A DNA stretch of 64,000 nucleotides. Origin: an uncultured bacterium. GTDB taxonomy: Bacteria; Patescibacteriota; Minisyncoccia; Phycocordibacterales; GCA-2401445. The notes beneath the pieces were generated by a model. The model ran no database searches. It was not told the DNA's origin and saw only the letters and a program-made list of their open reading frames with translations. The first letter of the stretch is position 1, and the number at the start of each line of letters is the position of its first letter. The DNA is taken from contig CALFYW010000016.1 of the NCBI GenBank assembly GCA_937952265.1, forward strand, positions 13,086 through 77,085, read 5' to 3'. The translations under genes and the position numbers were made by a program. Below, one piece after another: positions 7,408 to 63,389 of the stretch.

Positions 7408-7988
7408 TTATGCGGAAAATTACTTTTGATATTGAAACGAGTAATCAATTTTCAGATGTCGGTAGCTCAGATCCCGCAGACCTCGACCTTTCAATTATTT
7501 GTATTCATGATTCTCTTGGTGACGAGTTTAAAAGCTTTACCCAGGAAGAGCTTTCAAACCTTTGGCCAATCATTGAAAAAGCGGATATGCTGATTGGGTT
7601 TAATTCCGATCATTTTGATATTCCGCTTCTCAATAAATATTACGCGGGAGATCTTTCACGCATCAAAAGCCTCGACCTACTCAAAGAAGTGAAAAAATCT
7701 CTCGGACGACGAATTAAACTCGACACCCTTGCGCAGGGAACTTTAGGAAAAAAGAAAATCGGTAATGGTTTAGAGGCCCTAACGTGGTGGAAAAATGGCG
7801 AAGTGGAAAAAGTAAAAAAGTACTGTATTGAGGATGTTCGTATCACGAAAGAACTCTATGAATACGCCAAAAAAAATGGTTCCCTAAAATACCCGGATAT
7901 GGGAACGATCAAGGAAATACCCATTGATAGTAGCTCGTGGGAAAAGAAAGACACCTCGGGCGTACTCACATACACACTACCGTTTTAA
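7404..7988 (+). CDS. RNase H-like 3'-5' exonuclease (PolB-exonuclease-like, PF13482-like)
   Basis: ExoI FDIETS, ExoII FNSDHFDIPLL and ExoIII YCIEDV motifs. Start may be M3 at 7410. Confidence 0.5.
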   Translation: MIMRKITFDIETSNQFSDVGSSDPADLDLSIICIHDSLGDEFKSFTQEELSNLWPIIEKADMLIGFNSDHFDIPLLNKYYAGDLSRIKSLDLLKEVKKSLGRRIKLDTLAQGTLGKKKIGNGLEALTWWKNGEVEKVKKYCIEDVRITKELYEYAKKNGSLKYPDMGTIKEIPIDSSSWEKKDTSGVLTYTLPF

Positions 7989-34881: not shown

Positions 34882-34980
34882 AGCACATGAGTATATTCCG
34901 TTGTTTAATACCCATCAATCTTTTTTCAAATTCAGAATTGGTGGTGTTTGTTTGAAAAAGTTAGAACTCATTTCCGAGAA

Positions 34981-35247
34981 GGCAACGACTGACTCGCCCC
35001 GCCGCCCGCCTCCGCTAACGCTCCGGCGGCAACCTTGCAGAAACATTTTCTTTACAATTTTCTTTTTTGCGCGCGCCCCAGAAATTTTTTCAATTAAGGA
35101 AAAGAAAATGTTTCTGCTCGGTTCCGCCCGTGAAGTTTCCGGGCGGAGCGGCGGGGCTTCCACGCTCGGACGGCTCGGCATTCCTCCCCCAGACCCCCTC
35201 CTGCCGAGCCGTCCTCGCTTCGGGGCGGGAATTTTTTGCGGGGCTAC
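34981..35247. repeat. GC-rich palindromic repeat, copy A; inverted relative to copy B
   Basis: About 75-85% identical by eye to the reverse complement of 39483-39812. Its end (cgcttcggggcgggaattttttgcggggctac) overlaps the stop of the 35244 gene. Confidence 0.7.
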
Positions 35248-36068
35248 TTATCCTGATTTGCCTCCTCATTCGGTTTATATTCTATTTTAAGTGGTAAATC
35301 AGTCATTGCATAGTGAACAAATTGCTGTCCGAGGTCTGTAAGTTCATACTTTTCCTCACGGTCAAATGCTGATTTCATCTCACGAGAAGCAACATAACCT
35401 TTTGGTCTTTTTTGTGGAGTATCTTTCAAGAACCGTCCATCATAAGTTTTTTGTCTGTGTTGGCGTATAATCCCTCCTGTGCTTAAATCTCGGAACAGCA
35501 ATTTGTACAAATCGGCATCTGCCGAATCTTCGCGCACGGTTTCTTTTCCAATTTTTTCCCACACTTCACCTCGCGAAATACCGCCACTATTGTAAATTGC
35601 TCCGATGACATGGAAATGTAGTTCGGAATAATCTTTTAACCAGTCGATAAATAGTCGCACCACATCATCACTTGTTAGGTCTGAGGCGGCGGCATTCGCG
35701 AGAATATTTCTGATGTACATCCTCTTTTCGTCGCTTTCTGCTCCCGACCATTCTCGAAATGTCTTTTTGAGTAAGGATTGATACTCCTTGCTTTCAATCC
35801 TTCTGGCAATTTCTTCATCGTGAATATCGAGCCGCGCCATTATTTCGAGAATGGTCTTTTCTTTCTCACGAATTTCGTCTTCAAGCATTTTAATCCAATG
35901 CTTGAAAAAATTATTAACCTTCTCTTGTTCTTTTTCTGACCATGCTCCCGCCGCCGCTGAAAACAAGCCACCAGCAAATGGGACGGCTCCCCCGACAACT
36001 TGCAAAGCACCCCGAACGATTTTCGGGGCACCGCCTTCCTTTGGTAATTTTTTATCTTCTTCCGCCAT
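35244..36068 (-). CDS. Hypothetical protein (island gene 1)
   Basis: 274 aa, Gly/Ala-rich N-terminus, no known motif. A 4-nt gap separates it from the upstream gene. Confidence 0.45.
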   Translation of the reverse strand: MAEEDKKLPKEGGAPKIVRGALQVVGGAVPFAGGLFSAAAGAWSEKEQEKVNNFFKHWIKMLEDEIREKEKTILEIMARLDIHDEEIARRIESKEYQSLLKKTFREWSGAESDEKRMYIRNILANAAASDLTSDDVVRLFIDWLKDYSELHFHVIGAIYNSGGISRGEVWEKIGKETVREDSADADLYKLLFRDLSTGGIIRQHRQKTYDGRFLKDTPQKRPKGYVASREMKSAFDREEKYELTDLGQQFVHYAMTDLPLKIEYKPNEEANQDK

Positions 36069-36072
36069 AGTT

Positions 36073-37002
36073 CTATTGCAAGCTATCGATATATATTGTT
36101 ACTTCATCATCAAATTCTCTCACCAAATCCATTGAGTAAATCACACCTAAACTTTCTGCTTCGTCAGAACTTACCAACGATGGAACACCAATCATACAGC
36201 CATGTCTATCAACAGCTAATCCGCCAGAGTTTCCATGACTAATTTTTGCAGAAGTTACTATCAAACCATCACCGGGGAAACTACTAACCACACCATCGGT
36301 TACTGTTAGAGAATATCCTCCACTGATTGCCGGGTATCCGAAAATACGGATTGGCTCACCAAGTTGTACATATTCATTTGTGCAACTTGTTGTATCATCA
36401 AAAGTTGGAAATTTACGCGGATATACCCCCGCATATTCTCCAGTTTCTTCATCGTAGTAAGCTGCGTAAATTTCCATGTACGCCAAATCGTAATTATCGC
36501 TAATGGTTGGCAATACAATCGGATTAGCTAAATAGATACCGTCTGGCTGTCCAGTTACAGGATCGGGCAGGACAACTAGACATCCCGTTTCATCTACGTG
36601 GAGATAAACCTCGTCCTGGGGAATTATGTGCGAGTTTGTGAGAATTAAGCCATCCTCGCTTATTATCGTGCCAGAACCGCCACTTGATTCATCTTCCGAC
36701 TCTGTGCTTGGGCAGAAGATATTTACAACGGACGCCGCGATTGAATTTTGATTGTATGACGTCGTGTGCGTTGCTGGATAATCGGTCGTGCTGTAGTCAG
36801 TTGAAGAATCATCGTAAACACCAATAACAATAAAGAAAGCTAATACTCCGAGTATAATTAAAATCGCTTTCAAATGATCTTTAATCCATTGAGAAAATCG
36901 TTCTCTAAAAATTGCGAACCGACTAAATTTTAATTCATGCCCACAGTTCTTGCAGAATCTCGTACCCAGTTTTATTTTTTGTCCGCAATTTTTACAAAAC
37001 AT
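36073..37002 (-). CDS. Zinc-ribbon / TM / trypsin-like serine protease
   Basis: MFCKNCGQKIKLGTRFCKNCG zinc ribbon, one TM helix, and the triad context LTNSHI ... D ... GNSGG. Confidence 0.6.
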   Translation of the reverse strand: MFCKNCGQKIKLGTRFCKNCGHELKFSRFAIFRERFSQWIKDHLKAILIILGVLAFFIVIGVYDDSSTDYSTTDYPATHTTSYNQNSIAASVVNIFCPSTESEDESSGGSGTIISEDGLILTNSHIIPQDEVYLHVDETGCLVVLPDPVTGQPDGIYLANPIVLPTISDNYDLAYMEIYAAYYDEETGEYAGVYPRKFPTFDDTTSCTNEYVQLGEPIRIFGYPAISGGYSLTVTDGVVSSFPGDGLIVTSAKISHGNSGGLAVDRHGCMIGVPSLVSSDEAESLGVIYSMDLVREFDDEVTIYIDSLQ

Positions 37003-37003
37003 G

Positions 37004-37246
37004 TTATGTTAATTTACTTCCGCAATGAGTGCAGAATTTTTGCCCTTCCTCAACAGGAGAACCGCAAGACCAACAGAAACTGCCTTTTGCATCATTATCG
37101 CCAACATCTTTCGTCCCTCCAGTAACTTCTGCAAGTTCTTTTTTCTTTGCAATAAGTTCGTTCTTAGTTTTTTCATCTATTCGTCCTTTTACTTGAAATA
37201 GGAAATTAAGAAAATCAGGAAGAACAACAACGTTCATTACATCCAT
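37004..37246 (-). CDS. Small protein with C-terminal zinc ribbon
   Basis: CWSCGSPVEEGQKFCTHCG at the C-terminus. Start ambiguous; set to MDVMNV to limit overlap. Confidence 0.4.
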   Translation of the reverse strand: MDVMNVVVLPDFLNFLFQVKGRIDEKTKNELIAKKKELAEVTGGTKDVGDNDAKGSFCWSCGSPVEEGQKFCTHCGSKLT

Positions 37247-37793
37247 TGAATATGCAGAAAATTCCTTGTATTTCTTTTTTTTGGTCATCGCGAAATACAT
37301 GCAATGCACCCTGTTGTAGAATTGAATTATAGTATTGATCCCAGGGCAAGAGCTCTGGGTCTCGCCAAAATCTCTTTTTTAGTAATCCCTGCGGAGTAAT
37401 AGTTAGTGAGTCAATCTTTAATTCTTTATCTTTTGCAAATTTTAGAAGTAAATTGATTACTACGTGCGGTTTTATAAGATTTTCTATAACCGCATAAAAT
37501 TTTGCAAAAAGTTCATCTTTCTCTTTCTCGGTCTTTCCTTTTCCAATAAAAAATGTTCCAGCAGAGAATTCTATTTTATGAGTCTTCCCATTTGCTTGAA
37601 TCTTTATATTGTACTTACTCGTTGAACCAGCAGGTACAAAGTAGACAGTAGTGGTTGTTCTTGTTAGCAGATAAGATATGCCCTCAATATCGGTATAGTT
37701 TATTCGTTCGCCTTTATATACAAGGTAGTGTTCATAAAACAAAAGAGTCTGACTCCTTGAAACATTTATAGCGATGATTGGTTCTTGTGCCAT
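37215..37793 (-). CDS. Hypothetical protein (island gene 4)
   Basis: Its start ATG lies 1 nt after the stop of the upstream gene (taacatg). No motif. Confidence 0.4.
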   Translation of the reverse strand: MAQEPIIAINVSRSQTLLFYEHYLVYKGERINYTDIEGISYLLTRTTTTVYFVPAGSTSKYNIKIQANGKTHKIEFSAGTFFIGKGKTEKEKDELFAKFYAVIENLIKPHVVINLLLKFAKDKELKIDSLTITPQGLLKKRFWRDPELLPWDQYYNSILQQGALHVFRDDQKKEIQGIFCIFNGCNERCCSS

Positions 37794-37794
37794 G

Positions 37795-38478
37795 TTATTT
37801 ACTTTCGTTGCGTAAGTTATTTTCAGCAACTCCAAGGAGATATCCATGAATAAGTTGCTGAATTAAGCTATCTTTTATTCCGTCGACAACTGCCTTAGGT
37901 AGTTCCTTCAATGTTTGGTTTGACTCAAATAGTCCGTCTCCAATTTGGTCGTTAACAGCATTGAGAACAGTTAGTACATCATCGGGTATGGAAATAATTT
38001 TATTTGTATGATTCCTGAAAACACGCTTCCATTCTTCTGCCAAATCTTCATTGTCTTTAATCTCAACTTTTTTAATTGTTACTCCTTTCAAAATCTGTTC
38101 TGCAATAAAAACTTGATAAGCGTTGTGTACAAATGAAGTTAGATAGGATTTCACAGCTTCTATTGTTTTGTACGGCTGTTTATCAAGATCAATTTTATGA
38201 TTTTCTGTTAAGGTGTTTAGCGAATTATGGCTAAATCGCCCAATCATATCCCAAACTGCTTCCGAAGTTAGTTCATTGTATTTTTTTAGTTCATTACCCT
38301 CCGCACGTGCTATTTCTAAAAATTTTTTCCAAAGAATGTTGGCTGATTCTAACTTTGGATCATTTTCTTCTGGATTCTTTTCCGCTGACTCTTGCCCAGA
38401 CTTTTTCAAGCTGTGACCGCAACTGTCACAGAAATTCGCTTGGTCCGATATTTTTGTTCCACAATTTGGGCAAAACAT
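37795..38478 (-). CDS. N-terminal zinc-ribbon protein with unknown soluble domain
   Basis: MFCPNCGTKISDQANFCDSCG. Confidence 0.5.
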   Translation of the reverse strand: MFCPNCGTKISDQANFCDSCGHSLKKSGQESAEKNPEENDPKLESANILWKKFLEIARAEGNELKKYNELTSEAVWDMIGRFSHNSLNTLTENHKIDLDKQPYKTIEAVKSYLTSFVHNAYQVFIAEQILKGVTIKKVEIKDNEDLAEEWKRVFRNHTNKIISIPDDVLTVLNAVNDQIGDGLFESNQTLKELPKAVVDGIKDSLIQQLIHGYLLGVAENNLRNESK

Positions 38479-38487
38479 ATAATCATT

Positions 38488-39120
38488 TTATGGCATAAAT
38501 GTGCCAATAAGTACTAATAGAAACCAAATGACTCCAATTACTATTAAAACCACCTCACCACCAGAAAAACCTGGAGTCAGCACATCATCGCCCTTTATTT
38601 TCTCATTATTATAATTGATTGCTTTTTGAATCGACATCAATGGAATAAAGGTTGCGACTGCAATAATCAGCCAGAGAAGATTAAAACCAACGTCATACGA
38701 TTCAACCCTACTTAGACCATTTCCTATCACGAGGAGTAAAATGTAAGCAGTTGCCAACCACCCCGGCGAATAAGACTCTTTGTAGTCGTGACTTTTAGCA
38801 GATTCTAATACTTTTTTAAACAAACTATGACAGAAAAAAATAGCAAAGATAGCTCTCCAAAACGGTGATATTTTTTGCCCTTCTGCACTTTTAACTGCTT
38901 GCCAGTTTTTGTAAAACCAATAAATTTCATAAATACCTAAAGTAAGAATCGAAAACAAGGCGAGTCGTTTAGGAGATATAGCAAAATACTCAATATCAGT
39001 TATTACGTTTTCCTCGCTTTTCGAATTAGCAGAAGGCTGATTTTCTGCCAACTTTGCTCCACACTTCTGGCAGAATTTTGAACCTTCATCTATTTTTGAT
39101 CCACAGCTTGTACAAAACAT
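38488..39120 (-). CDS. N-terminal zinc-ribbon plus DUF4234-like membrane protein
   Basis: MFCTSCGSKIDEGSKFCQKCG, then LTLGIYEIYWFYKNW (DUF4234-like) and three TM helices. Confidence 0.5.
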   Translation of the reverse strand: MFCTSCGSKIDEGSKFCQKCGAKLAENQPSANSKSEENVITDIEYFAISPKRLALFSILTLGIYEIYWFYKNWQAVKSAEGQKISPFWRAIFAIFFCHSLFKKVLESAKSHDYKESYSPGWLATAYILLLVIGNGLSRVESYDVGFNLLWLIIAVATFIPLMSIQKAINYNNEKIKGDDVLTPGFSGGEVVLIVIGVIWFLLVLIGTFMP

Positions 39121-39125
39121 AATAT

Positions 39126-39332
39126 TTAATTTATTAACTCATCAACGGAAATATCCAACGCCTTGGCGACCTTTCGCAAGGTTTCAAGCGTAGGATTTTT
39201 ATTTTCCCCTGATTCCATTTTAATAATCGTATTATTGGCGACATCGGCCAATCTCGCCAATCGCTCTTGTGAAAGGCCTTTTTGCTTTCGCAACTTTTCC
39301 ACATTCTTTGATAAATTTTCGTTCTTTGACAT
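39126..39332 (-). CDS. XRE-family HTH transcriptional regulator
   Basis: LRKQKGLSQERLARLADVANNTIIKMESGE; start set at MSKNEN. Confidence 0.7.
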   Translation of the reverse strand: MSKNENLSKNVEKLRKQKGLSQERLARLADVANNTIIKMESGENKNPTLETLRKVAKALDISVDELIN

Positions 39333-39348
39333 ATCTTTAGTGTAGTAG

Positions 39349-39395
39349 TAACATTGAAATAGAGTATGCAAATCTTTTCAACTATTTCAATGTTA
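39349..39395. promoter_or_regulatory. Perfect 14-bp inverted repeat upstream of the XRE gene (candidate operator)
   Basis: taacattgaaatag-N19-ctatttcaatgtta, 17-63 nt upstream of the XRE ATG. Confidence 0.5.
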
Positions 39396-39482
39396 CATCT
39401 AAAATATAAAAAAGTCAAAACTAAAGGGAGTTCCCTGTTGCCCGCGCACGGGAGTGGTGGGGCAAGGGCAACTATAAATCCG

Positions 39483-39812
39483 GTAGCCCCACAAAAAATT
39501 TCCGCCCCGAAGCGAGGGCGTGGCGGAAGGAGGGGGTTGGGGGGAGGAATTCCGCCACGCCCGAGCGAAATCAGAAAGAGGCCGCACCCGCCGCCCTGAT
39601 CGTCAGAGCAGAGCACCACAGAAAAGTTTTGTTTTCCTTTTAGAAGAAAAAATCGGTCGCGCGCAAAAGGAAAATCGTAAACAAAACTTTTCTGTGGTGG
39701 GGCGAGAGTCAGCGAGCGGCGGGAATCTTGGCGGTGGATTTCAGAAACCCTTGGCATTTCCTTGCGGAAATGCCTGCCGAAGCGAGGGACGAAGCCCCGA
39801 GCGAGGCAACTA
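39483..39812. repeat. GC-rich palindromic repeat, copy B (longer; extra 5' module)
   Basis: gtagccccacaaaaaatttccgccccgaagcgagg ... matches the reverse complement of copy A. Internal 20-bp inverted repeat ccacagaaaagttttgtttt / aaaacaaaacttttctgtgg. Confidence 0.7.
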
Positions 39813-39820
39813 ATCAACTT

Positions 39821-39894
39821 TGGTGGACCTAGCGAGAATCGAACTCGCGCCTCTACAATGCGAATGTAGCGTCGTACCACTAGACTATAGGCCC
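39821..39894 (-). tRNA. tRNA-Ala (CGC)
   Basis: Hand-folded cloverleaf: G3:U70, anticodon loop TTCGCAT, T-loop TTCGATT, encoded CCA. Confidence 0.8.
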
Positions 39895-39910
39895 TAAAAC
39901 GGTATATCAA

Positions 39911-39981
39911 TCGGGGTGCCGGGAATTGAACCCGGTCTACACGCACCCGAAGCGTGCGTACTACCGGTATACTACACCCCG
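39911..39981 (-). tRNA. tRNA-Pro (CGG)
   Basis: C1:G72 and A73 (bacterial Pro identity), anticodon loop TTCGGGT, T-loop TTCAATT, no encoded CCA. Confidence 0.75.
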
Positions 39982-40104
39982 CTTAACGTAACTCCTAAAA
40001 ATCCAACTCTACTGTAGCAGAAATTGCGACAAAAGATACTACTCTTTTTTTAATTAAGGCCGCTCGAAGTATTTTGCTACGTTTCAAATAGCGGTCCCAT
40101 TTTG

Positions 40105-40175
40105 TGGACTCACGGGGGATCGCACCCCGGACTCGTCCATGCCATGGACGCGTATTACTACTATACTATGAGCCC
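40105..40175 (-). tRNA. tRNA-Ala (GGC)
   Basis: G3:U70, anticodon loop ATGGCAT, A73, no encoded CCA. Confidence 0.75.
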
Positions 40176-63161: not shown

Positions 63162-63235
63162 TGCCGGATCGTCTAATGGTAGGACAATGGATTCTGGCTC
63201 CATTAATCTAGGTTCGAGTCCTAGTCCGGCAGCCA
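63162..63235 (+). tRNA. tRNA-Gln (CTG)
   Basis: U1:A72 and G73 (Gln identity), anticodon loop TTCTGGC, T-loop TTCGAGT, encoded CCA. Confidence 0.75.
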
Positions 63236-63241
63236 AAAAGG

Positions 63242-63389
63242 TATGTCGCAAGGCGACATTGTTCGAGCTCTCGGCGTAAGCCGAAGTTTTGTGAGTAATA
63301 TTGAAAACGGAAAGACCAACCCAACACTTTCGACCATTAAGCGCATCGCAGATGCGCTCGGCGTGTCGGTAGATAGACTTTTGAAATGA
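63242..63389 (+). CDS. Short XRE-type HTH ORF (lacks helix 1), translationally coupled to the next gene
   Basis: MSQGDIVRALGVSRSFVSNIENGKTNPTLSTIKRIADALGVSVDRLLK. ATG is 6 nt after the tRNA-Gln 3' end. Its stop overlaps the next ATG (ATGA). Confidence 0.35.

Follow-up and report, generated by a model that had tools for sequence, protein, structure and literature searches.

Inverted multi-palindromic arms as candidate boundaries of recombinase-associated gene cassettes in Patescibacteria

Hin with its H segment, Gin with the G segment of Mu and Cin with the C segment of P1 (which has 0.6-kb inverted repeats) are serine-invertase systems, in which a serine recombinase gene lies in or beside a segment that is bounded by inverted repeats and occurs in both orientations. 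A similar arrangement, with flanked segments in either orientation in different assemblies, is seen in the elements considered here, a family of inverted repeats of about 300 nt (the arms) from bacteria of the Candidate Phyla Radiation (CPR, or Patescibacteria), two diverged copies of which enclose an island in a 64,000-nucleotide stretch from an uncultured patescibacterium (contig CALFYW010000016.1 of assembly GCA_937952265.1, positions 13,086 to 77,085; hereafter the window, with positions counted from its first letter). Just as hin is enclosed by inverted repeats, so too is the gene for the large serine recombinase (LSR) that is linked to the arms. The differences are nevertheless considerable: the invertases are small enzymes, whereas the arm-linked protein is an LSR with Recombinase and zinc-ribbon domains; the repeats of the arm system measure 92-330 bp and are highly structured; its cargo consists of whole operons, e.g., for restriction-modification (R-M), rather than alternative gene ends; and it has no evident enhancer or promoter-switch logic.

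Integrative elements that depend on an LSR (phage integrases, Tn4451/Tn5397, SCCmec) come equally close, having the LSR at one end where it abuts or overlaps a tRNA 3' end, no target-site duplications and variable cargo. Unlike them, the arm system has nested, long and perfect inverted repeats around both LSR and cargo, and its pseudo-tRNA end is inverted, not direct, relative to the tRNA. In addition, none of 2.9 million viral contigs in IMG/VR matched the arm family, and a phage origin of the arms was rejected on these grounds. In integrons, too, the recombinase gene diverges from a structured site of the recombination type, beyond which come variable cassettes poor in promoters, and attC sites, like the arms, are defined by a conserved structure with covarying stems; however, integrons use the tyrosine recombinase IntI and direct attC sites of 60-140 bp with extrahelical bases, whereas the arms go with a serine enzyme, are inverted, extend over some 300 bp and have an invariant loop. 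The pdif modules of Acinetobacter plasmids, with 28-bp XerC/D sites in alternating orientation that are served by the host XerCD, are also discrete modules bounded by inverted or alternating sites and found in varied contexts and orientations, and differ in the length of those sites and in the enzyme, the 300-bp arms being LSR-linked.

Mobile R-M units flanked by long inverted repeats have reportedly been described by the Kobayashi laboratory, and R-M units with a C protein share with the arm cassettes a controller helix-turn-helix (HTH) gene in first position and methyltransferase and endonuclease cargo between long inverted repeats. In contrast to these units, the arm family recurs across CPR phyla, has a conserved hairpin core and encloses non-R-M cargo as well; in the window, the controller HTH gene is present with no methyltransferase or endonuclease, so the window cargo is not that of a C-protein R-M cassette. 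Finally, the core of the arms, TTCCTCCCCC-(1-5 nt)-CCCCCTCCTT, with its mirrored covariation at the centre of a covarying inverted repeat, is reminiscent of H-DNA mirror repeats and of the cruciforms at rolling-circle origins, although no Rep/HUH protein is linked to the arms as it would be at such an origin. To our knowledge, no system has been described whose functional site is a cruciform with an H-DNA centre. With these precedents in mind, we regard the arm elements as a variant of serine-recombinase mobile or invertible elements. The explanation that we favour, at a probability of roughly 0.55, is that the arms act at the DNA level as the two ends of mobile gene cassettes associated with a recombinase, in a family found throughout the CPR/Patescibacteria of which the window copy is a decayed member.

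The arm pair of the window and its family

The original prediction, made from the letters of the window, was of two GC-rich, inverted copies with shared collinear blocks, and repeat searches, alignments and shuffles bore it out: arm A (34920-35247, plus strand) and arm B (39483-39820, minus strand) are homologous, and their conserved 3' ends do point into the 4.2-kb low-GC island between them. The identity had been estimated by eye at 75-85%. The repeat search scored an inverted repeat of 85 nt (35163-35247 and 39483-39567) at 84%, and the copies had 75% column identity in a MAFFT global alignment and 74% over 255 columns in a local one (35005-35247 against 39483-39723). The 64 kb contain exactly two instances of each of the conserved blocks TTCCTCCCCCNNACCCCCTCC and CTCGCTTCGGGGCGGNAATTTTTTG, with none expected from 100 shuffles. 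As had also been noticed, the copies (GC content 0.60 and 0.56) are much richer in GC than the island (0.38) or the window as a whole (0.43), and copy A meets the stop codon of the open reading frame (ORF) at 35244-36068, which it overlaps through the CTA within GGGGCTAC, the complement of TAG. Two boundaries needed revision. The 3' end of copy A at 35247 was placed correctly, and the profile search moved its 5' start some 60 nt further left, to 34920/34938 (TTGGTGGTG...). The supposed extra 5' module of copy B (39724-39820) turned out to lie outside the arm proper and to resemble a recombinase-flanking repeat of relatives, to which we return below.

The family was delimited by exact-loop scans of GTDB genomes and JGI metagenomes, followed by searches with an nhmmer profile built from the matches. 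A search for further copies in other genomes had been proposed with the original prediction, and it produced 137 homologous loci (designated by L numbers where a label is needed) in CPR/Patescibacteria-type metagenome-assembled genomes (MAGs), a few evidently mis-binned contigs, and groundwater and sediment metagenomes; the lineages named include Ryan-, Sung-, Vogel-, Wolfe-, Nealson- and Shapirobacteria, Saccharibacteria, Gracilibacteria and Peribacteria. To judge by the names that its UDG homologues bear, the window organism is itself a relative of Paceibacterota/Parcubacteria. Within the window the profile matched at 34920-35246 on the plus strand (E=4e-71) and at 39460-39838 on the minus strand (E=2e-62), and nowhere else. 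The two window arms represent different subtypes, A and B, with arm A being a canonical type-A arm closest to those of L223 and L031. Literature searches, which included a paper on gene exchange in Patescibacteria, found no description of the arms, and the family is apparently both widespread in CPR bacteria and undescribed. An arm with its flanks was nearly identical between L028 (JAWAEI010000040.1, binned as Pacearchaeota) and L099, a Saccharibacteria MAG, and this 5.4-kb R-M contig assigned to a DPANN archaeon is probably mis-binned; the same may be true of L067 ('Gammaproteobacteria'), L068 ('Nitrospina') and L095 ('Actinomycetota').

An arm consists of about 300 nt of stacked palindromes. 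Its tip starts with TGG(N)... and continues into a (A/G)(T/C)TCGAAC-like box; next inward is a GC helix (CCCCGCCGCC...GGCGGCGGGG), capped either by a short loop or by a long AT-rich hairpin with TTTGCGCGCG as its loop, and this is followed by the hallmark hairpin and a 3' tail ending in ...TTTTTYGGCGG. Arm A, of type A and distal to the start of the cargo, has the tip TTGGTGGTG... with its TCGAAC-like box at 34938-34975, then the GC helix, the long AT-rich hairpin at 35024-35130 (30-nt arms at 83%, the loop containing TTTGCGCGCG), the C-loop hairpin at 35168-35214, in which a 13-bp stem (GGACGGCTCGGCA/TGCCGAGCCGTCC) encloses the 21-nt loop TTCCTCCCCCAGACCCCCTCC (35181-35201), and the 3' tail ending in GGGGCTAC. 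The core of arm B, of type B and proximal to the HTH gene (39483-39723, minus strand), has its own GC helix, an AT-rich hairpin at 39614-39699, a C-loop hairpin with stems at 39550-39562 and 39516-39528 (GGGCGTGGCGGAA/TTCCGCCACGCCC) around a loop at 39529-39549, and the 3' tail. In paired arms, identity stops abruptly after the 3' tail, and inner and outer boundaries are both sharp. Type-B arms can have a further small hairpin at their inner ends, beyond ...CGGCGGAATTGGAGGCCGT, with two alternative sequences, GCCAATTTCATTGGC or ATTTCGCAAAGCGAAAT (L126, L127, L153, L195, L218, L224-L227, L232, L238); L195 has one version on each arm.

The divergence between arms A and B does not have the pattern of random drift, being largely compensatory and confined for the most part to two hairpins: the AT-rich hairpin contains three double compensatory changes, and the 13-bp stem differs between the arms around a 21-nt loop that is the same in both save for its 3-nt centre. 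Among 40 distinct copies of the hallmark hairpin, 95.2% of cells were paired and all 15 pairs had changed on both sides, a level of covariation reached by none of 500 shuffles. MAFFT combined with RNAalifold on 35 full arms gave a gappy alignment and recovered the hallmark hairpin alone. The loop is a perfect homopyrimidine mirror repeat, TTCCTCCCCC-(1-5 nt)-CCCCCTCC(TT), in which only the central linker varies (CAA 106, AGA 26, CCAA 11, and others); the window arms have AGA and CAA, one centre per arm. Three independent loop variants, from arms found via their partner or body and not via the loop, keep the mirror symmetry, i.e., CCTTCC...CCTTCC in L141/L190, TTCCCCCC-ACA-CCCCCCTT in L102/L149 and CCTCCCTC-ACA-CTCCCTCC in L215. 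Such mirror-symmetric variation is the constraint that would be expected of an H-DNA or triplex-type sequence, and in both window arms the mirror repeat has the dimensions of a candidate H-DNA former (halves of some 8-10 bp or more around a short spacer).

Recombinase, tRNA ends and cargo

The linked LSR, with its Resolvase, Recombinase and Zn_ribbon_recom domains, was found by a profile search in 34 of the 137 loci, usually divergent from the HTH-proximal arm, and it was the nearest outer (5') ORF of an arm in 13 of 70 non-redundant cases (19%). The order was almost always the same: the LSR gene pointing outward, an arm and an HTH gene both pointing inward, cargo, and a second arm facing the first. 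In intact relatives a tRNA 3' end precedes the LSR module, the 3' end of the LSR gene overlapping the convergent tRNA 3' end by 9-83 nt in 8 of 18 loci, and in 16 of 17 loci the gene was enclosed by an inverted repeat of its own, 92-273 nt long and 98-100% identical. One copy of this repeat starts 4-6 nt inside the tRNA 3' end and the other abuts the arm tip (7 of the 8 loci examined at their junctions). The arm tip itself resembles the reverse complement of the neighbouring tRNA 3' end (TGG...TCGAAC), as illustrated by L238, in which tRNA-Pro gives TGGTCGGGGTGACAGGATTCGAACC and the arm gives TGGTCGCAATTACTGAACGAAGCTCGAACC. There were 19 cases of a tRNA gene within 200 nt of an arm tip, on either strand (11 directly upstream and co-oriented with the arm, 8 on the opposite strand), and junctions mapped to within a few nt of CCA/TGG ends.

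No LSR gene was found anywhere in the 64-kb window. The tRNA adjacency seen in the relatives with their LSR-tRNA overlap is present, arm B standing directly after tRNA-Ala(CGC), and the segment that follows the CCA end of this tRNA (39724-39820, minus strand) resembles, as judged by eye, the LSR-flanking repeat of L223 (and L238) and not a canonical arm tip; it is likely the remnant of an LSR module lost from between the tRNA gene and arm B. The same segment holds the GC mini-hairpin motif GTTGCCTCGCTCGGGGCTTCGTCCC. A motif of this kind, GCCGAGGGGCGAAGCCCCGAGGCAAC, recurs outside the arms and within the recombinase-flanking repeat (window 39770-39806; L006 ~7500-7560; L208 ~700-760; L160, L155 and L223), and its GCGAAGC/GCTTCGC-type triloop hairpins resemble the very stable DNA mini-hairpin d(GCGAAGC).

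Arms are typically arranged as convergent inverted pairs with their 3' ends inward, spanning 1.2-11 kb. Paired arms mostly agree at 95-100% over some 300 nt (L006, 296 nt at 100%; L163, 298 nt; L223, 310 nt; also L155, L191, L151 and L215), with heterotypic pairs in the window (74%) and L172 (79%), and in L215 an adjacent divergent arm on the same contig is only 70% identical. Identical pairs spaced by kilobases were nearly always convergent, L208 providing the sole divergent pair seen. That the arms are present in multiple copies was deduced from contig breaks, since many contigs end inside arms. The outer ends of the well-resolved pairs examined had no direct repeats, and this absence of target-site duplications fits serine recombinases. 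It also tells against the terminal inverted repeats of a classical transposon or of a miniature derivative (MITE), as do the 74% identity and different subtypes of the window arms and the occurrence of arms around housekeeping genes.

In 36 arms the 3' end is followed, within about 200 nt and on the same strand, by a small XRE/controller HTH gene, and that of the window at 39126-39371 is one of these. These arms are C-phase or of undetermined phase (the phase being the orientation of the loop relative to the arm body), never G-phase, and the HTH protein is conserved across CPR phyla at 45-66% identity. A cargo survey covered 102 cassette ORFs from 24 units, 13 of which matched DNA methyltransferase families and 10 the PADLOC control-protein model; other matches were to LexA/S24 fusions, MutH-like nucleases and AAA ATPases, and the cargo also included AlaRS, aconitase, isocitrate dehydrogenase and ZIP transporters. 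Pairs that are G-phase or have no HTH gene enclose ddl, purD, znuAC and similar genes.

Evidence for movement came from relatives. Inversions with breakpoints in the arms distinguished a 2.7-kb unit in L010 and L148 and the LSR segment in L208 and L240; they may reflect real polymorphism in the populations or the way in which assemblers resolved perfect repeats. Between L147 and L229, LSR, arm and HTH gene are 94% identical, and the differences lie in the cargo after the HTH gene and in the DNA beyond the LSR stop. For the window island no inverted variant was seen among four contigs of the same population that have an identical UDG gene, all of which carried the same island.

Weighing the explanations

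The best reading of these arms is that they act as recombination or boundary repeats of LSR-associated cassettes, a mechanism that we infer from sequence comparison. The two arms would supply the cassette with inverted sites, recombination between which would invert the segment, or exchange its cargo by double crossover, and would not delete it; frequent recombination from arm to arm would keep paired arms identical. That the LSR acts on the arms, where it would cross over, and what the H-DNA/cruciform core would contribute are likewise inferences. Among the options raised in the original prediction, a mobile element or recombination sites come closest to the evidence. The window copy, having no LSR, is non-autonomous, and its unit, with arms of two different subtypes, is probably immobile. 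On this model the window island would be an old member of the family, read in order as tRNA-Ala(CGC), the remnant of the LSR module, arm B, the HTH gene, the six genes of the cargo and arm A, with the UDG gene as its far limit.

A number of observations weigh against the cassette model. No LSR was seen in 103 of the 137 loci, though many of their contigs are short; both inversions are open to the assembly explanation given above; and housekeeping genes (ddl, purD, znuAC, PPDK-like) are flanked by arms with no HTH gene, which would also fit a general dispersed repeat. An empty site for the window locus was not recovered, relatives with a 77% identical UDG having no synteny. The invariance of the loop is partly one of ascertainment, as loci had been fetched by the loop pattern, and the mirror-repeat core is not dyad-symmetric and is therefore unlikely to be a standard serine-recombinase crossover site. 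The core could instead be an accessory structural element, a barrier to forks or transcription, or a site of protein recognition. The 11 co-oriented tRNA genes directly upstream of arms, together with the T-runs of the tails, also fit transcription of the arms. A separate proposal, integration at the hairpin loop, was rejected, as it would give direct loops, contradicting the identical inverted arms.

A bolder form of the model, which we put forward tentatively and consider doubtful as it stands, is a hitherto unrecognised LSR-driven cassette platform of the CPR in which arms of about 300 bp, each with several palindromes, a tRNA-end-like tip and an H-DNA-centred cruciform, serve as inverted recombination sites. 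If true, a serine-recombinase analogue of integrons or shufflons, dependent on non-B DNA structure, would invert and swap whole operons (defence, metabolic, even the recombinase gene itself) without loss. The interest of such a system is plain, since CPR/Patescibacteria have tiny genomes in which gene gain and shuffling are poorly understood: a tRNA-adjacent LSR with inverted arms, a controller HTH gene and swappable cargo would be a testable vehicle for the horizontal exchange of R-M systems and other cassettes, and a covarying cruciform whose centre keeps its mirror symmetry is an unusual candidate for a functional non-B DNA site. LSRs with defined sites are also sought as tools for genome engineering. 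On a practical level, the arms explain frequent contig breaks and orientation ambiguities in metagenome assemblies of CPR bacteria.

The structured RNA family that had been offered as another option is weakened by the evidence and now appears unlikely. The arms would then be structured noncoding RNA genes or cis-elements of about 300 nt, transcribed toward the cassette and often together with upstream tRNAs, whose C-rich loop clamps a purine-rich partner (AAGGAGGGGG) or binds a protein and so regulates the HTH/cargo operon or the recombinase. Relative to shuffled controls both window copies fold strongly (z = -5.5 for arm A and -5.6 for arm B), compensatory changes occur in several helices, both window copies have a terminator-like hairpin and T-run in the 3' tail, the co-oriented tRNA genes and the 36 same-strand HTH genes are placed as would suit a transcript, and the mirror covariation of the loop is compatible with a pyrimidine triplex clamp. 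A single-stranded RNA, however, would normally have far more G-U on its own strand, and would not tolerate the change of a C-loop into a G-loop. The arms had no such strand-specific signature: stem mismatches were G.T in 28 cases and A.C in 25, with no wobble bias to either strand; in 32 of 43 arms the antisense strand of the arm body folded at least as well as the sense strand, and G-U pairs totalled 270 and 281; and the loop was C-phase in 92 arms and G-phase in 16, both phases occurring within single subtypes. At the orthologous locus of L172 and L217, the arms match at about 92%, with the hairpin as the one exact exception. A loop in both orientations, the lack of wobble bias and the lack of a folding advantage for the sense strand argue for a DNA-level rather than an RNA role. 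In addition, no gene lies ahead of the distal arm, which converges on the cargo genes, the 8 tRNA neighbours on the opposite strand do not suit co-transcription, the window shows no enrichment of the purine target AAGGAGGGGG, and Rfam 15, at gathering and relaxed thresholds, matched only tRNAs in the window and 30 related loci, the best other matches to the arms being chance-level ones to miRNA and lncRNA models at E values of at least 0.1.

More specific RNA roles were considered and rejected as well. The 'GTTCGAAC' box and the tRNA adjacency had suggested tmRNA, RNase P, SRP or 6S RNA, for all of which ARAGORN and Rfam were negative, and a resemblance to a tRNA 3' end in reverse complement explains the box better. 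A riboswitch-like leader of the HTH operon was discarded on account of the second arm of each pair, convergent with the cargo as noted, and an anti-Shine-Dalgarno mimic or trans-acting purine target on account of the AAGGAGGGGG result. Simple intrinsic terminators were set aside because the T-run in many relatives has no hairpin before it; the tail T-run may pair with the 5' module instead.

Comparably improbable is a reading of the arms as palindromic repeats scattered generically through CPR genomes, like REP/BIME, ERIC or Correia elements, and having no dedicated link to the recombinase. Inverted pairs would predominate since direct pairs delete the DNA between them, gene conversion between nearby inverted repeats would keep the arms identical, and template switching at quasi-palindromes would produce the compensatory changes and loop flips as by-products. 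This reading accommodates with ease the flanking of housekeeping genes as well as defence cargo, the many contigs that end inside arms, as expected of a multi-copy repeat, the lack of target duplications, the symmetric mismatch spectrum and the existence of a double-headed palindromic fusion in L134. It does not account for an LSR in fixed relative orientation as the immediate outer neighbour in 19% of non-redundant cases, for an HTH gene after the arm that is conserved across CPR phyla, for tips that mimic the particular tRNA end beside the LSR, or for identical kilobase-spaced pairs that, L208 excepted, converge; the mirror-symmetric covariation of the loop indicates selection on the core, and two copies in 64 kb are far below the densities of REP-type repeats. 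The fusion in L134 (3138-3542) comprises two arms joined head-to-head that share one AT-rich hairpin, with a perfect palindromic overlap of 172 nt and two C-loop hairpins, and it suggests template switching at palindromes.

A chance or low-complexity GC-rich similarity, the outcome that had been named in advance as fatal to the prediction, has next to no likelihood given collinear homology over about 250 nt, zero matches expected from shuffles and 137 homologous loci with covarying stems, even though the loop is a low-complexity, C-rich tract and its 21-mer pattern also occurs at unrelated loci in Bacteroidota, Myxococcota and Verrucomicrobiota, none of which match the profile. These off-family occurrences, with the 21-nt pattern TTCCTCCCCC..ACCCCCTCC, are found among L001-L120 and look like other repeat families (for example L005, L022, L030, L062; L011, L041, L056, L080, L104, L111; L004, L042, L057, L071, L083, L117). 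In the Bacteroidota copies the pattern is followed by AAAGGGGGA and there is a GGAGGGGG partner, the Myxococcus copies lie near contig ends with a conserved flank, and those of Verrucomicrobiales have the conserved flank ...AGCAATTTCCTAGCAG.

The island and its neighbourhood

The first gene after arm B, at 39126-39371 on the minus strand, encodes the XRE/controller-type HTH protein (Pfam HTH_3, 1e-16), likely starting from an ATG at 39332 to give 68 aa; its PADLOC matches are to control protein and capH. Upstream of it, an inverted repeat (GTAACATTGAAATAG and CTATTTCAATGTTAC, 39325-39419, from the repeat search) encloses promoter-like hexamers, with predicted sites at 39418-39390 and 39390-39363, and is a putative operator of the controller protein. 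The cargo (35244-39120, minus strand, GC 0.38) comprises six ORFs, four for zinc-ribbon proteins, one of these with a trypsin-like domain, and two for proteins of unknown function. On its other side, arm B adjoins a cluster of tRNA genes (39821-40175, minus strand) identified by ARAGORN, with Rfam tRNA matches: tRNA-Ala(CGC) at 39821-39894, tRNA-Pro(CGG) at 39911-39981 and tRNA-Ala(GGC) at 40104-40175.

Elsewhere in the window, at 63162-63389, a second homologue of the cassette HTH protein, truncated at its N terminus (48 aa), begins 8 nt downstream of tRNA-Gln(CTG). No arm was detected there, and the gene may be a scar left at the window edge by another tRNA-linked cassette. Two contigs of the window's population, L242 (570-1202) and L243 (530-1162), were compared for the second cargo gene, which encodes 210 aa in the window; in L242 it is called as a 44-aa zinc-ribbon ORF and a 156-aa ORF, a split that suggests a frameshift or a variant within the population.

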